A DNA stretch of 64,000 nt, taken from positions 68,773-132,772 of IMG/VR virus record IMGVR_UViG_3300044691_000355. One strand, 5' to 3'. Of this stretch, positions 3,853 through 38,649 are shown piece after piece. The DNA comes from a virus. The notes under the pieces are model-generated. The model searched no databases, was not told the DNA's origin, and saw only the letters and a program-made list of their open reading frames with translations. Every line of letters begins with the position of its first letter. Within the stretch, counting starts at the first letter, position 1. Both the position numbers and the translations under genes were made by a program.

Positions 3853-4033
3853 GATCCCAATACTCAGCCTTTTCAGCAGCGTCCATCCCGGCTTCATCCT
3901 TACCCTTGGCAAGCAGCTCGATCGCGCGTCGCGCCCACTTGTCACGCTTGACGCTGTATTCGACGTGGCGGCGGAAGCGCTCTACGAGGTCTGTTTTTGG
4001 GCGCATGGCTGATTATGCACACGGAAAATTATA

Positions 4034-5866
4034 ATGAAGCAAATACGGATTGGCTCTGTTTCTATCCCGCTCGATAGCTATGTCGTGGGAGGAACTGCGT
4101 TATTGGGAATCAGGGAATCTGGAAAAACCTACGCGGCCAAGGGCATCGCTGAACAACTCCTTGATTATAAGATACCGATTGTCGTCTTCGACGCCATTGG
4201 CGTCTGGAGGCACTTAAAAGTCGCGCGCCCCAGCGCTGGCGGCCGGGGCTTCAAGATCGTCATTGCTGGCGGCGAGAGCGCTGATCTACCACTGACGCCG
4301 GCCAGCGCACCGGCTATTGTTCGCGCCGCGATCGCTGAGAACATCCCGCTCGTCATCGATTTGTACGATCACAAGCTGTCGAAGGCTGACTGGCGTCGCA
4401 TCGTGCAGCATTGCTTCCGCACGTTGCTCTACGAGAACAAGGGGCTGCGCCATATTTTCCTCGAGGAAACCGCGGAGTACGCGCCTCAAAAGGTCATGGA
4501 CGGCGAGACCTATGCCGAGGTAGAGAAACTTGTGCGCATGGGCGGCAACAAGTCGCTTGGTATCACGCTGATCAATCAGCGGGCACAGGAAGTCAACAAG
4601 GCTGTCTTGGATCTCTGCGAAAATCTCGTGCTGATGCGCCAACGCGGCGCCCACGCCATCGGGGCGCTGGAGAAGTGGATCGACAAGCTGGAACCTGATA
4701 TCGCCAAGACCATCGCAACCGAGATGCCGCACATGGAAGCCGGTGACGCCTGGGTATTCAGCGGCAGCGCCGAAACCGCCAAGCGCACACACACTGCGCA
4801 TATCCTTTCGTATCACCCGGATCGCCGCAAACCACAGACGAAGGCGACAGCGCCCGATCGTATTGCTGACACCGTCGACTTTGTGTCGAAGCTCGCTGGA
4901 GAGTTGAAATCGCTGACGGCTGAGGCGGCGGCAAACGATCCATCGACGCTCAAGCGGCGTATAGCCGAGCTGGAGCGCCAGGTGAAGGCGGCGCCCGCCA
5001 AGGCGACAGCAGCGGTCACTGATTCGGCCACCGGCAGACGTCATGCCGCTCAGCTCGTAAAACTCACTGCATTGATCGAGGAGCTTATGAAATTCGTCGT
5101 CACGATCAACGCCAAGGACTTCACGGCCAAGGCCGGCGAGAACGTCGACGGAGATGCGCTACAGAAGGCGATCGAGGCGGCCGTGGTCCGCGCTCGGCAA
5201 CTGATTGAGCAAAGCATGGAGGCGCGTAACCGTGAGCTGCAGGCGCTGCAGCGAGACGGCGGCCGACTGGTGGCACGCGTGCAAAAGCTGCTCGAATCCC
5301 AGGACGTCAAGATCGACGTCGACGTAAAGCACAATGAACCATTCACCGTGGCGCCGACGCAGCGGCCAGCGCCGGCAGCCAGAAAGACCAATGGGTCATC
5401 CAGCGATATTGGCTCTGGCGGCAAGCGTCGAATGCTCACCGTACTGGCGCAGTACCCTGAAGGTATGCACCACGGCAAGCTGTCGATTCTTACGGGCCTT
5501 TCGTCGCGCTCCGGCACCTGGAGCACCTATCTGGGAGAACTTCGCACCAAAGGATGGGTGGAGGGGCGCGACCATCTGAAAGTCACGGAAGACGGATTGC
5601 AGGCGCTAGGCGATTGGCAGCCACTGCCGACAGGCCAACAATTGATTGAGTATTGGCGGCAACGGCTGGGCGACAGCGGCAAGCGAAAGATATTTGATGT
5701 CGCAGTAGCGGCCTATCCGAATGCTGTCGTCACCGAAGAGGTAGCCGAGCAAACCGGTTTATCTGCGCGCAGCGGAACGTGGAGTACATATCTCGGCGAG
5801 CTGCGCACGCTCGGGCTCATAACCGGCCGCGGCGAAGTGCGCGCCAGTGAGGATTTGTTCTCATGA
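4034..5866 (+). CDS. HerA/FtsK-like (DUF87-type) ATPase with coiled coil and two C-terminal winged-helix repeats
   Basis: Walker A GIRESGKT, Walker B IFLEE, LINQR; duplicated GLSxRSGTWSTYLGELRT. Confidence 0.8.
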   Translation: MKQIRIGSVSIPLDSYVVGGTALLGIRESGKTYAAKGIAEQLLDYKIPIVVFDAIGVWRHLKVARPSAGGRGFKIVIAGGESADLPLTPASAPAIVRAAIAENIPLVIDLYDHKLSKADWRRIVQHCFRTLLYENKGLRHIFLEETAEYAPQKVMDGETYAEVEKLVRMGGNKSLGITLINQRAQEVNKAVLDLCENLVLMRQRGAHAIGALEKWIDKLEPDIAKTIATEMPHMEAGDAWVFSGSAETAKRTHTAHILSYHPDRRKPQTKATAPDRIADTVDFVSKLAGELKSLTAEAAANDPSTLKRRIAELERQVKAAPAKATAAVTDSATGRRHAAQLVKLTALIEELMKFVVTINAKDFTAKAGENVDGDALQKAIEAAVVRARQLIEQSMEARNRELQALQRDGGRLVARVQKLLESQDVKIDVDVKHNEPFTVAPTQRPAPAARKTNGSSSDIGSGGKRRMLTVLAQYPEGMHHGKLSILTGLSSRSGTWSTYLGELRTKGWVEGRDHLKVTEDGLQALGDWQPLPTGQQLIEYWRQRLGDSGKRKIFDVAVAAYPNAVVTEEVAEQTGLSARSGTWSTYLGELRTLGLITGRGEVRASEDLFS

Positions 5867-36391: not shown

Positions 36392-36616
36392 CTAGTGTAA
36401 AAATACGGGCAGTGCCCGCGTGACGGCGTGTGCATCGCACGCGCCAAGATTCTCGTCATCCTCGTGAACGATGATCCGTGCGTCCACAGGATCTCGGTAC
36501 GGACGGCACCAGCACCACAGCGCCGGATAGTGCGCGACGGCTATATCGTCTGCGTCGACTGGCAGCACGTGCTTATCGTCGCAATCCTCGTCAACGAACA
36601 CGCCCCAGCGGTTCAT
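36392..36616 (-). CDS. Small His/Cys-motif phage protein
   Basis: HVLPVD..H...CWCRP..IVH; ATGA-coupled. Confidence 0.65.
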   Translation of the reverse strand: MNRWGVFVDEDCDDKHVLPVDADDIAVAHYPALWCWCRPYRDPVDARIIVHEDDENLGACDAHAVTRALPVFLH

Positions 36617-38649
36617 AGGCCGGCTCGCTTGAATGCAATTGGATCGCTGGCGCGCATCTCATCGAGGGTCATTGGGGCGAACTTCTTATCGACTTGAAGT
36701 GCTGAAAAGCGCTCCGCTGATAGGCCGCCGTCGCGCAACAGCTTGCCGCGGGTGGGTCCGATCGCGAGGTCTTGGAAATTTGCTGGTTGGGTTTTCAGCC
36801 AATCGTAATAGCTCAAATCCGCAGAGACTTGCTGACCGCCTTCAGCACCTTTGGATGCGCGCGTCGCTCCCTCGTCTAAAAACGCGTACTCGTCTTTCAG
36901 AACCGGGACCATTGTGCAGCGACAGTTGTGCGTTATAATTCCATTCGCGACGTAAAATCCTTTTTCAGTCTCAAGGTTGTACACGTGACCAGAAAACTTA
37001 CGCACTTCAATCCCGACGACGTTGTCAAACTCTACCGCTCCAAAATGCCCACTGGAGATATCTGCGCCAAGCTGCGCATCTCCAAAACCGTCATGTACAG
37101 GGCGCTCACCGAAAAGCACTGCAAGATGTTTTCCAAAAGAGAGATCGCGCAGGGCGCTGTTCCAACCCAGCGAATTCTTTCGCTTTACCGTAGCGGCATT
37201 GGAATGAGCGGCATCCAAAAGAAAACCGGCGTCGGCCGGGTTGCCGTCAAATCCATCTTGCGCAAAAATGGCGTCAGTATTAGGGGGCGGTCGGATCAGC
37301 AACAAGCGAGAATGGATCGCGCAACACCGGAAGAACGCAAGCGGCTCACTAAACCATCGCACGATGCGGCCCGCGGCAGTACGCACACCGAAGAGCATCG
37401 TTGCAAACATGCAAAGACACGAGAGGATCGGCAAACACACATTTCCGAATACGAGAGGCTCCTTGCAATTGCGCTCAAACAACGAGGACTCACGCCCATC
37501 TGCCAAAAAGCGGTTGGTCGCTACAATTGCGATATCGCCATCGATTCCATCGCCGTGGAAATCTTCGGCGGTGGTTGGCACTGGCATGGCGCGCATCTCG
37601 ATGGAAGCGAAAAACGCATACGCTATATCCTCAATGCGGGCTGGCACTTGCTGATGATTCACATCACCGATGACGCTGGTTTCGACGGCATCGCAAACCA
37701 CGTCGTCGCCTTCCGCGATGAGATGCGCAGCGATCCAGCCGCGACTCGTCAATACCGGGTGATTCGCAGTAACGGACAGGCTCTTTCCGCCGGCCGTGCG
37801 AATGACGACAAGATGTCCATCGAATGGGCGTTTACTAACACCCGTGATCTTGTAACGGGACGATACAAGAGCGTCCCCAGGCACGCAATTAATATGGAGG
37901 GGCGGGCGGGGTCCGCGATCAGCGGGGAACTGCCGTAGGTCGAGGCTGCGACAGCTCGGACAGCTTCTTTTATCGAGCACGCTCAACCATTGATACGCCT
38001 TGATGATGTCGGCATTGGCGGCGAATGATTCCAAGCGCGCCACCGTCGCCACATGCTGAACTGCGGTGCGTACAACCGCTTCGGCATGGCGCGAGGTGAC
38101 GTTGAGAAGCCCATCCTGATAGTTGCGCGCATGCGAGCCTCGCAGCTCTGAAATGATCGACTGATTGGTCTTGCCCTCAAACACACCGCGGCGAATCGTG
38201 CCGTTCACGCCGCGAACTTCCGTTTGCGTCCAGTTCTCGATGAATGACTTCAGAAGCGCGCCGCGGCCGCTGCCTTTCACGCCCAATGGCGTTGCAAGAA
38301 TGGCCGCGCGAATCTGCGTGATGCTAGGAATGACGGCATCGAAGGTTGTGGCGGCGTCTAGCGCACCAGATGAAAATCGCGCTTCATGCCGCGCGAATTC
38401 CTCCAAGTTGAGCAGCAGTTGCTTCGAGTAGCGGTTCAGAATCCCATCCATCAACGTATCAACCGTCGATAGCAGTTGCTCCATGCGCTCGCGCGCTAGG
38501 CCGGTGACGCTAGAGTCCGCCATGGCATCGCGCAGCGCGCGGTCCATTTCCTTCAGAAACGGCTTGAACTTCGCGACCTCGCTGCTCGATAGGCGCTGAA
38601 TCAGTACCTGATGACGCAGAAGCGCATCTTGTAGCGGGACGGCGGCCAT
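36613..38649 (-). CDS. MuF/SPP1 gp7-like minor head protein, intein-containing (357 aa after splicing)
   Basis: VRTA, W.SVLDKRSCPSCRSLD, PPLHIN|CRC restored on intein removal. Confidence 0.9.
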   Translation of the reverse strand: MAAVPLQDALLRHQVLIQRLSSSEVAKFKPFLKEMDRALRDAMADSSVTGLARERMEQLLSTVDTLMDGILNRYSKQLLLNLEEFARHEARFSSGALDAATTFDAVIPSITQIRAAILATPLGVKGSGRGALLKSFIENWTQTEVRGVNGTIRRGVFEGKTNQSIISELRGSHARNYQDGLLNVTSRHAEAVVRTAVQHVATVARLESFAANADIIKAYQWLSVLDKRSCPSCRSLDLRQFPADRGPRPPLHINCVPGDALVSSRYKITGVSKRPFDGHLVVIRTAGGKSLSVTANHPVLTSRGWIAAHLIAEGDDVVCDAVETSVIGDVNHQQVPARIEDIAYAFFASIEMRAMPVPTTAEDFHGDGIDGDIAIVATNRFLADGRESSLFERNCKEPLVFGNVCLPILSCLCMFATMLFGVRTAAGRIVRWFSEPLAFFRCCAIHSRLLLIRPPPNTDAIFAQDGFDGNPADAGFLLDAAHSNAATVKRKNSLGWNSALRDLSFGKHLAVLFGERPVHDGFGDAQLGADISSGHFGAVEFDNVVGIEVRKFSGHVYNLETEKGFYVANGIITHNCRCTMVPVLKDEYAFLDEGATRASKGAEGGQQVSADLSYYDWLKTQPANFQDLAIGPTRGKLLRDGGLSAERFSALQVDKKFAPMTLDEMRASDPIAFKRAGL
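36912..36939 (+). promoter_or_regulatory. Candidate antisense sigma70 promoter TTGTGC-N16-TATAAT
   Basis: Perfect TATAAT at 36934-36939, 46 nt before GTG 36985; -35 is weak. Confidence 0.5.
36925..37887 (-). mobile_element. Intein (321 aa, residues 255-575)
   Basis: Block A CVPGDALV, block B TANHPVLT, block F VYNLET, block G GIITHN followed by Cys+1. Confidence 0.92.
36985..37938 (+). CDS. Antisense endonuclease: 2x HTH + NUMOD3-like + DUF559/Vsr-like PD-(D/E)xK domain
   Basis: SEYERLL..QKAVGRYNCDIAIDSIAVEIFGGGWH..AGWHLL; frame open from 36928; AAGG before GTG 36985. Confidence 0.8.
   Translation: MTRKLTHFNPDDVVKLYRSKMPTGDICAKLRISKTVMYRALTEKHCKMFSKREIAQGAVPTQRILSLYRSGIGMSGIQKKTGVGRVAVKSILRKNGVSIRGRSDQQQARMDRATPEERKRLTKPSHDAARGSTHTEEHRCKHAKTREDRQTHISEYERLLAIALKQRGLTPICQKAVGRYNCDIAIDSIAVEIFGGGWHWHGAHLDGSEKRIRYILNAGWHLLMIHITDDAGFDGIANHVVAFRDEMRSDPAATRQYRVIRSNGQALSAGRANDDKMSIEWAFTNTRDLVTGRYKSVPRHAINMEGRAGSAISGELP

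Follow-up and report, generated by a model that had tools for sequence, protein, structure and literature searches.

A MuF-type phage intein with a putative homing endonuclease gene encoded on the complementary strand

Inteins that carry a homing endonuclease (HEN) on the strand opposite their own reading frame have been described in a small number of systems. Gosselin, Arsenault, and Gogarten (bioRxiv 10.1101/2025.01.02.630785, October 2025 version) reported 63 actinobacteriophage inteins with noncanonical HENs, antisense LAGLIDADG or VSR-like HENs among them, in four host protein types that include the minor capsid protein. According to the main text of that preprint, the VSR-like HEN matches Protein Data Bank (PDB) entry 3R3P and the in-frame centre of the intein has no recognizable structure; continuing transfer is indicated for some groups, the sampling is called sparse by the authors themselves, and the kind is suspected to be commoner than found. 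The same text credits antisense LAGLIDADG inteins (Synechocystis DnaX and a Chloroflexus SpoVR-like protein) to Gorbalenya 1998 and Gogarten et al. 2002. Two further systems concern related nucleases: in the fractured genes described by Dassa et al. 2009 (PMC2677866), a Vsr-like or GIY-YIG endonuclease gene lies between the halves of a split intein, and I-Bth0305I (PDB 3R3P) was presented as the prototype of the EDxHD homing endonucleases by Taylor et al. 2011 (PMC3239194). The present analysis concerns an intein in a MuF-like head gene within a 64,000-nucleotide (nt) stretch of the IMG/VR virus record IMGVR_UViG_3300044691_000355 (positions 68,773 to 132,772; here called the window). The source record comprises 132,772 bases and is estimated to be 96% complete, and the guanine-plus-cytosine (GC) content of the window is 58%. 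Sequence comparison and structure models together make it very probable that the element is a mobile MuF intein whose homing endonuclease has a gene to itself, located on the complementary strand in codon register with the intein frame. A preliminary description, made from the sequence alone, had stated that no account of such an architecture was known to its author; this did not hold, as antisense VSR-like HENs in full inteins are reported in the preprint. The kind is therefore already known, and the window is a further case from outside the actinobacteriophages.

The MuF intein and the gene opposite it

The features of the locus, with residues of the + strand protein counted throughout from the first GTG at 36928 (the 336-amino-acid form, in which residue n faces intein residue 321-n), are as follows.

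36613..38649, - strand: MuF-like head morphogenesis/minor capsid gene with intein, an open reading frame (ORF) among head genes that encodes a 678-amino-acid precursor
37888..38649, - strand: N-extein, 254 amino acids, ending ...PPLHIN, placed by sequence and homologue alignment
36925..37887, - strand: class-1 intein, 321 amino acids, with Cys1, T40-A-N-H43 (block B), GHVYNLET (block F), H320-N321, and Cys+1
36613..36924, - strand: C-extein CRCTMVPV..., 103 amino acids plus stop, placed by ORF and alignment
37081..37569, - strand: intein centre, residues 107-269, apparently read-through filler whose sole constraint would be the lack of stop codons
36985..37938, + strand: putative antisense homing endonuclease gene, 317 amino acids from GTG 36985, stop TAG 37936-37938
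37012..37272, + strand: helix-turn-helix (HTH) DNA-binding modules, residues 29-115, predicted from HTH_7, phrog_1303, profile, and fold
37435..37812, + strand: predicted Vsr/EDxHD-type (PD-(D/E)xK) nuclease domain, residues 170-295, from fold, profile, and conserved residues
37588..37812, both strands: overlap of approximately 75 codons predicted to be structured twice, as Hint N-subdomain (residues 26-100, - strand) and as C-terminal half of the nuclease core (residues 221-295, + strand)

That the MuF-like gene contains a 321-amino-acid intein at 36925-37887, which interrupts the MuF motif PPLHIN/CRC at the slash, had been read from the sequence beforehand, and family models agree. The - strand protein matched Phage_Mu_F (9e-10), phrog_241 (3.5e-128), and TIGR01641 (3.2e-13), the intein N- and C-terminal models TIGR01443 and TIGR01445, and the Mtu RecA mini-intein (6.6e-4); no endonuclease family was matched by it in the family searches. 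On the + strand, Cys1 is the antisense of GCA at 37885-37887, the terminal Asn that of GTT at 36925-36927, and the +1 Cys that of ACA at 36922-36924. The closest MuF proteins in cultured phages, those of Pseudomonas phages phiAH14a (362 amino acids) and Medea1 (361 amino acids), share 45-47% identity with the host protein, are both intein free, and align with it end to end, minus the 321-residue insert. Because these homologues align across the junction without the 321 residues, the insertion is clean and the predicted spliced product is 357 amino acids in length.

The intein has the attributes of class 1, namely, Cys1 and Cys+1, T-x-x-H, His-Asn, a Hint fold, and an insertion without counterpart in homologues. 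Across 38 intein sequences, C1, N42, H43, T307, and N321 were invariant, and T40 and H320 were at least 90% conserved. In the AlphaFold2 (AF2) model, built from the alignment of 38 sequences, the pLDDT (predicted local distance difference test) means over 10 residues were 83-98 for residues 1-70, 81-100, and 281-321, and the top Foldseek matches were all inteins (Mtu RecA, Mxe GyrA, and Pho RadA; probability, 1.00). The MuF intein is predicted to be self-splicing. A split intein was considered and rejected, as the - frame is continuous. The centre had been proposed to be filler, an antisense shadow of the other strand, and this is supported by pLDDT values below 50 for residues 107-269, where no confident fold was obtained, and by the + frame selection described below. 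An endonuclease fold was looked for in the intein-frame insert and none was found with confidence: Foldseek matched Hint only, as did the single-sequence PDB search with the - strand protein. A novel in-frame endonuclease was likewise rejected, given the strand-specific substitution patterns and the low pLDDT of the centre.

Opposite the intein, the + strand ORF (36928..37938; 336 amino acids from the first GTG) is stop-free over the whole intein, codon-aligned with it, and ends 51 nt inside the N-extein, in agreement with what had been noted for 36928/36985-37938. The start GTG at 36985 was chosen by comparison with relatives. The encoded protein matched HTH_7 (4e-5, above the cut-off) and phrog_1303 (3e-10), and the profile matches of its HTH region were the tandem-HTH protein 2lvs (3e-7) and resolvase HTH domains. 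The AF2 model, from an alignment of 27 sequences, had a mean pLDDT of 83; in it, HTH modules of the resolvase type are followed by a helical linker and then by an alpha/beta domain that spans residues 170-295. Structural comparison matched the HTH to that of gamma-delta resolvase (Z 5.2; root mean square deviation [rmsd], 0.8 over 39 residues; helix pLDDT >90). For the nuclease domain, VIA-align returned Vsr (1cw0_A, Z 10.7, rmsd 2.3, 112 aligned; 1vsr, Z 10.1), I-Bth0305I (3r3p_A, Z 9.4, rmsd 2.7, 93 aligned), and the DUF559-type 3hrl (Z 9.0, rmsd 1.7); the next unrelated nucleases had Z values of 6.3 or lower, but two mitoribosomal proteins reached 8.3-9.1. A nuclease fold in the + ORF, which the preliminary description had made a point to be checked, is thus present in the model by both Foldseek (3r3p) and VIA-align. 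Of the parts earlier assigned to this protein, the HTHs (HTH_7, resolvase HTH fold) and the DUF559/Vsr-like nuclease stand, whereas no search supports the NUMOD3-like segment. When the family profile was compared with the PDB, 3hrl was matched at 4.4e-4 and 3r3p at 0.081. Among the 27 sequences D202, E211, and H218 do not vary and E176 hardly varies; the first three align with D, E, and H of 3hrl, and the composite EDxHD motif was mapped in part, without the final Asp. Database homologues of the + strand protein numbered 47, several of which are named very-short-patch-repair endonuclease at source, and many relatives have precomputed PF18741 matches.

The two folds are predicted to share DNA. 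The Vsr alignment extends to residue 289 of the + strand protein, and since the nuclease fold reaches residues 289-295, which face intein residues 26-32, approximately 75 codons fall in largely confident parts of both models. Within 37588-37812 the pLDDT means are mainly above 80 but fall to 58 for residues 71-80 of the intein and to 76 for residues 211-220 of the + strand protein.

Conservation of the layout and strand-specific constraint

To place the element among relatives, the + strand protein was used as a tblastn query, which identified 124 cultured-phage records, including phages of Salmonella, E. coli, Vibrio, Pseudomonas, Aggregatibacter, and Cronobacter; the N-extein found homologues in 1,046 phage records. 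A pattern scan of IMG/VR gave at least 561 relatives of the + strand protein, of which the best 80 were taken for locus analysis. The preliminary description had held that stops in the antisense frame of homologues would count against a two-strand element. Across all 80 loci, at GC contents of 37-69%, a codon-aligned - strand ORF of 363-1,272 amino acids covers the mid-point of the + strand match. The intein set was drawn from 85 loci (the 80 from IMG/VR, the window, and L001-L004); 79 inteins were delimited, representing 67 distinct DNA sequences, in all of which the antisense frame is open across the + ORF. Dropped before the counts were L025 and L042, in which contig ends cut the intein, L003, L039, and L040, in which the motif rule failed, and L077, which has stops in both frames. 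The same layout was found in nine of nine cultured-phage loci inspected (Salmonella, Vibrio, Idiomarinaceae, Gordonia [two], E. coli, Pseudomonas, Rhodococcus, and Salmonella SE1) and in two contigs of metagenome-assembled genomes. The insertion site is constant across the delimited inteins, in the form ...H-x-x/C...[HSR]N/C, where the slashes mark the two intein boundaries. Given these related loci, the conservation of the layout is far beyond chance.

Existing annotation of these loci was also inspected. The 60 rows listed, out of 110 matching phage records, place the match beneath stretches annotated as MuF-type, structural, or hypothetical or left without annotation, and never beneath an annotated endonuclease. 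None of the GenBank phage records inspected labels the antisense nuclease as a nuclease; at most, a partial "hypothetical protein" is given, e.g., ORF43 of phage sam. The MuF homologues themselves carry a range of labels, i.e., head morphogenesis, minor capsid, structural protein, NAD+--asparagine ADP-ribosyltransferase, and type III effector. Seven loci (L043, L049, L066, L071, L072, L076, and L080) have host ORFs of 939-1,272 amino acids with the same intein at the same H-x-x/C site; in these the MuF domains are probably fused to other modules.

Which strand is under selection differs along the intein. Across the 67 inteins, identity over residues 1-60 plus 301-321 was higher in the - frame (0.42-0.60) than in the + frame (0.33-0.40). 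Over residues 61-280 it was higher in the + frame, e.g., 0.47 versus 0.26 and 0.35 versus 0.16; amino acid identities in the centre ranged from 0.13 to 0.26 in the - frame and from 0.19 to 0.47 in the + frame. Nucleotide identity at codon position 1 of the - frame was approximately 0.32 in the centre, which is wobble-like, and was the same whichever frame guided the alignment.

Substitutions between close pairs, counted among the inteins of Salmonella phages sam and SE1 and E. coli phage Snoke, gave the same picture. In the centre (132 codons), 60-61 differences fell at - frame position 1 versus 23-24 at position 3, corresponding to 67-70 amino acid changes in the - frame versus 27-30 in the + frame. 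The C-terminal Hint segment had the reverse pattern (1-2 at position 1 versus 8-10 at position 3), while in intein codons 1-100 the two positions were about equal (11-14 versus 14-17), as is expected if both frames are constrained. The C-extein, used as a control, showed the ordinary pattern of 9-15, 5-13, and 51-66 differences at positions 1, 2, and 3. These patterns show that selection acts on the + strand gene at the centre of the intein and on the - strand gene at its ends; a strand-specific substitution test had been proposed in the preliminary description. GC content by codon position along the MuF gene of the window did not separate the strands.

Codon content agrees with this, with expected counts derived from the codon usage in the exteins of each locus. 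No TTA, CTA, or TCA codon occurs in the - frame over intein residues 16-60 of the set, where 59.3 would be expected, and this absence is not produced by the way the inteins were delimited.

Embedded signals, mobility, and alternative explanations

Candidate expression signals of the + strand gene lie within the conserved splicing blocks of the intein.

36973..36987, + strand: start GTG with Shine-Dalgarno AAGG (36973-36976) and an 8-nt spacer, antisense of N-L and His in block F (G-H-V-Y-N-L-E)
36934..36939, + strand: candidate -10 box TATAAT, opposite the codons for I-I within the intein end G-I-I-T-H-N (block G)

The codon located 60 nt inside the 3' boundary of the intein, which is the antisense of the residue preceding V-Y-N-L-E-T, is a start codon in 52 of the 67 inteins (ATG in 46, GTG in 5, including the window, and TTG in 1). 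Among the other 15, an ATG is present two codons downstream, again opposite His, in 13, but not in L028 and L053. The codons used for the facing residues are biased: in block F, CAT encodes the His in 46 of 51 cases (22.3 expected), and CTC or CTT encodes the Leu in 60 of 66 (23.1 expected), which places GAGG or AAGG 8-9 nt before the start. When the 67 upstream sequences were read by eye, without a tally, GAGG, AAGG, or GGAGG was seen 8-9 nt before the start in nearly all. A TANNNT hexamer (consensus TTATAAT) occurs at the same fixed offset in 46 of the 67 inteins; it depends on the codon of intein residue -4, which is NNA in 50 of 64 (8.1 expected), and Thr at -3 is encoded by ACA, which supplies the TG of an extended -10, in 27 of 47 (7.5 expected). 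The + strand stop is the antisense of Leu-2 in block A (CTA in 27 and TTA in 21) in 48 of the 67; in the window, where intein residue 2 is Val, the ORF consequently reads on for 17 more codons. As the inteins are only 30-45% identical in protein sequence, synonymous sites should have been randomized.

The distribution of the element is sporadic, the + ORF being present in 124 phage records compared with the 1,046 that have a homologue of the MuF N-extein. Between Salmonella phage sam and E. coli phage Snoke, which belong to two genera, the inteins are 95.7% identical and the C-exteins 79%. In a second soil metagenome (run X2), three contig pieces of the intein differ from the window by 0-1 bases and pieces of the exteins by 5-15%, and the first listed difference, at 37888, is the first extein base; these are single low-depth contigs, and the differences are those among the ones listed. 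This pattern is consistent with recent homing. In four DNA metagenome runs, no contig was found that skips the intein.

In the mechanism that would best account for these observations, late mRNA from the - strand is translated into the 678-amino-acid precursor, in which a class-1 Hint domain (residues ~1-100 plus 281-321) would fold around an unstructured linker of ~165 residues whose sequence is dictated by the gene on the opposite strand, and excision of the intein by splicing would yield the 357-amino-acid MuF. Signals on the + strand inside the intein, i.e., the -10 box in block G, the Shine-Dalgarno sequence and start in block F, and, in most relatives, the stop in the Leu-2 codon of block A, would allow production of a 317-amino-acid protein in which tandem HTH modules accompany a nuclease of the Vsr/EDxHD type. 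In mixed infections, MuF alleles without an intein would be cut by this protein close to the conserved H-x-N/C-x-C site, whereupon recombinational repair would copy the intein and the nuclease gene together. It also seems rather more plausible than otherwise that the two strands form a co-adapted unit, with ~75 codons serving two folded parts and signals held in synonymous sites of blocks G, F, and A, and that the family may exceed in size every other well-supported one of antisense overlapping genes this long (~0.8-1 kb) in prokaryotic viruses. If true, nature would here provide an example of a single stretch of DNA whose two strands each encode a folded domain.

Several observations weigh against an antisense homing endonuclease gene or temper the evidence for it. 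The complete absence of TTA, CTA, and TCA codons from the + frame in the centre of the 67 inteins, compared with ~271 expected, agrees with the substitution patterns but follows in part by construction, because the inteins were delimited inside one open - frame, although a broken - frame occurs in just one of the 80 loci; moreover, the 67 inteins are mutually related, so that codon counts are not independent events. Codon-aligned open stretches as long as 290 codons also lie antisense to other genes of the window, so that the window alone would not set the layout apart from chance. One of the 80 loci (L077) is a broken copy with stops in both frames. In the Salmonella/E. coli subgroup (L001, L005, and L089; phages sam, SE1, and Snoke), the nuclease core reads ...VAVEVFGGGWAC... 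and is without the otherwise invariant His; hence, not every member need be an active nuclease. The nuclease assignment itself was not recovered by every search. Although 3r3p was the top Foldseek match of the + strand model, the best whole-model E value was weak (7.7e-3), and a single-sequence PDB search with this protein returned an HTH match only and no nuclease. Scores for Pfam Vsr (PF03852, 12.1 bits versus a cut-off of 27) and MTES_1575 (PF18741, 17.6 versus 38.2) were below threshold, as was that for NCBIfam TIGR00632 (16.7 versus a cut-off of 97.85); the protein resembles the Vsr and MTES_1575 families in its predicted working, yet is no member of them by their cut-offs. With regard to expression, a sigma-70 scan of the window called no complete promoter at 36934-36939, since an adequate -35 is absent and the window also does not have the TG of an extended -10; the one 9/12 match, at 37500-37527, was within shuffle expectation. 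No RNA run was listed as containing the stretch. That the + strand gene is expressed independently of the late host gene is something we infer from the conserved signals.

Some of these loci merit comment in their own right. Over 1,400 bases L077 shares 99.6% identity with the intact L058, and two nearby substitutions at L077:2579-2586 create stops in adjacent codons, in both frames; inactivation of the element or an error in assembly would account for this copy. The subgroup without the His looks recently transferred, and either another residue acts as base or the element spreads by other means. A second long antisense stretch in the window, at 4289-5158 (- strand) opposite 4013-5863 (+ strand), covers 290 codons within an ORF of 617 amino acids. 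It was taken as chance in GC-rich DNA because the antisense frame has no family match (Pfam); the sense frame has only a sub-threshold match to HerA.

Three other explanations were considered. The + strand protein could be real but not, or no longer, a homing nuclease, acting instead as a DNA-binding regulator or domesticated factor (in one variant controlling late-gene expression directly or via antisense transcription) within an intein that is mostly inherited vertically. Its strongest family matches are indeed to HTH domains, the Jerseyvirus/Kagunavirus subgroup lacks the invariant His of the nuclease motif, and according to the preprint (bioRxiv 10.1101/2025.01.02.630785) most VSR-like cases look vertically inherited. 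We nevertheless regard this as unlikely, as the window protein retains D202, E211, and H218 and the nearly invariant E176 within a confident Vsr-type fold, the element is confined to a minority of MuF-bearing phage records, and the excess of intein over flank identity between two phage genera is repeated in a second metagenome. A conserved, mobile nuclease gene is also preferred to the view that a once free-standing nuclease gene had entered a mini-intein in reverse orientation and survives in the + ORF as a silent or decaying relic, kept open only by composition and - frame constraint. Such a remnant would be in keeping with the chance antisense frames of the GC-rich window and with the lack of a complete promoter call, but the + frame is open even at 37-43% GC, where 5.6-13.7 blocking codons per intein would be expected from extein usage in the converse case. 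Within the centre, purifying selection acts on the + frame and not on the - frame, the positions of start, Shine-Dalgarno sequence, and stop are fixed and backed by biased synonymous codons in the - frame, and the AF2 fold of the + strand protein is confident; this explanation is accordingly very improbable.

The reverse arrangement, in which the centre of the - frame is a functional domain (an unrecognized endonuclease or DNA-binding module) and the + frame its shadow, is hardly credible. The - frame motif P..EDFHGDG is nearly invariant, and AF2 places a helix and strand with a pLDDT of ~90 at intein residues 85-101; this motif, however, is the nuclease core strand ...AVEIFGG.WH read in antisense. 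The centre is modelled with a pLDDT below 50 and without a family or fold match besides Hint, and codon position 1 is its most variable site, the opposite of a coding signature.

Comparison with known systems

The layout is common and is fixed at one MuF-type site across phages of Proteobacteria, Actinobacteria, and uncultured hosts. The Salmonella Jerseyviruses and E. coli phage Snoke offer tractable systems for antisense nuclease expression, for splicing around a filler of ~165 residues, and for homing. To the debate on antisense overlaps the family contributes an example in which purifying selection can be resolved by strand and both products have a predicted fold, and for intein engineering it suggests that a Hint domain may tolerate a long insert of unconstrained sequence.

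With the antisense VSR-like HEN inteins of the preprint (bioRxiv 10.1101/2025.01.02.630785), as described in its main text, the window element shares a contiguous intein, an antisense nuclease ORF, a fold of the 3R3P/EDxHD type, and a centre of no recognizable structure, with minor capsid (MuF-type) proteins counted among the host proteins of the noncanonical HENs in the preprint. One intein links the two sets: the minor-capsid intein of Rhodococcus phage REQ3 is named in the preprint, and the window nuclease matches the minor head protein gene of this phage in antisense (E 2e-6). In the Gordonia phages Angelicage (gp15; L093), Affeca, and Keitabear, the nuclease query matches a MuF-type gene in antisense, with E values from 5e-13 to 1e-2; a cluster with phages of those names stands in the preprint under endonuclease VII-like HENs, which may reflect different genes or a different classification. 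The carrier in the window differs from the set of the preprint in not being an actinobacteriophage, its closest MuF relatives being those of the Pseudomonas phages named above. The main text of the preprint does not contain the terms "promoter," "ribosom," or "start codon," nor were the breadth of the family, a single conserved MuF-type insertion site, strand-resolved substitutions, signals in blocks A, F, and G, or a long overlap with the splicing domain found in it, although its supplements may hold more on these points and may show the extent of overlap. In most relatives of the window element the + ORF spans intein residues 2-300 and has ~75 codons in common with confidently folded strands of the Hint domain.

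The antisense LAGLIDADG inteins follow the same principle of a nuclease opposite a contiguous intein, but the nuclease family, host genes, and organisms differ. Like the fractured genes (PMC2677866), the window intein contains a phage-associated Vsr-like nuclease as a separate gene with what appear to be its own expression signals. In those systems, however, host gene and intein are divided between two trans-splicing ORFs and the nuclease gene overlaps the downstream half by 6-69 bp only, whereas in the window the intein frame is unbroken and translation of its strand would pass through the entire nuclease gene. The predicted protein also resembles I-Bth0305I (PMC3239194), in which a C-terminal Vsr-like catalytic domain follows an N-terminal DNA-binding region and whose gene likewise sits within an element that interrupts a phage gene. 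For I-Bth0305I that element is a group I intron of recA, while the window protein belongs to an intein, has resolvase-type HTH modules, and shares only marginal sequence similarity with it (profile E value, 0.081). To these known systems the present analysis adds the breadth of the family, the putative expression signals embedded in the splicing blocks, and ~75 codons that are predicted to encode folded parts of both proteins.

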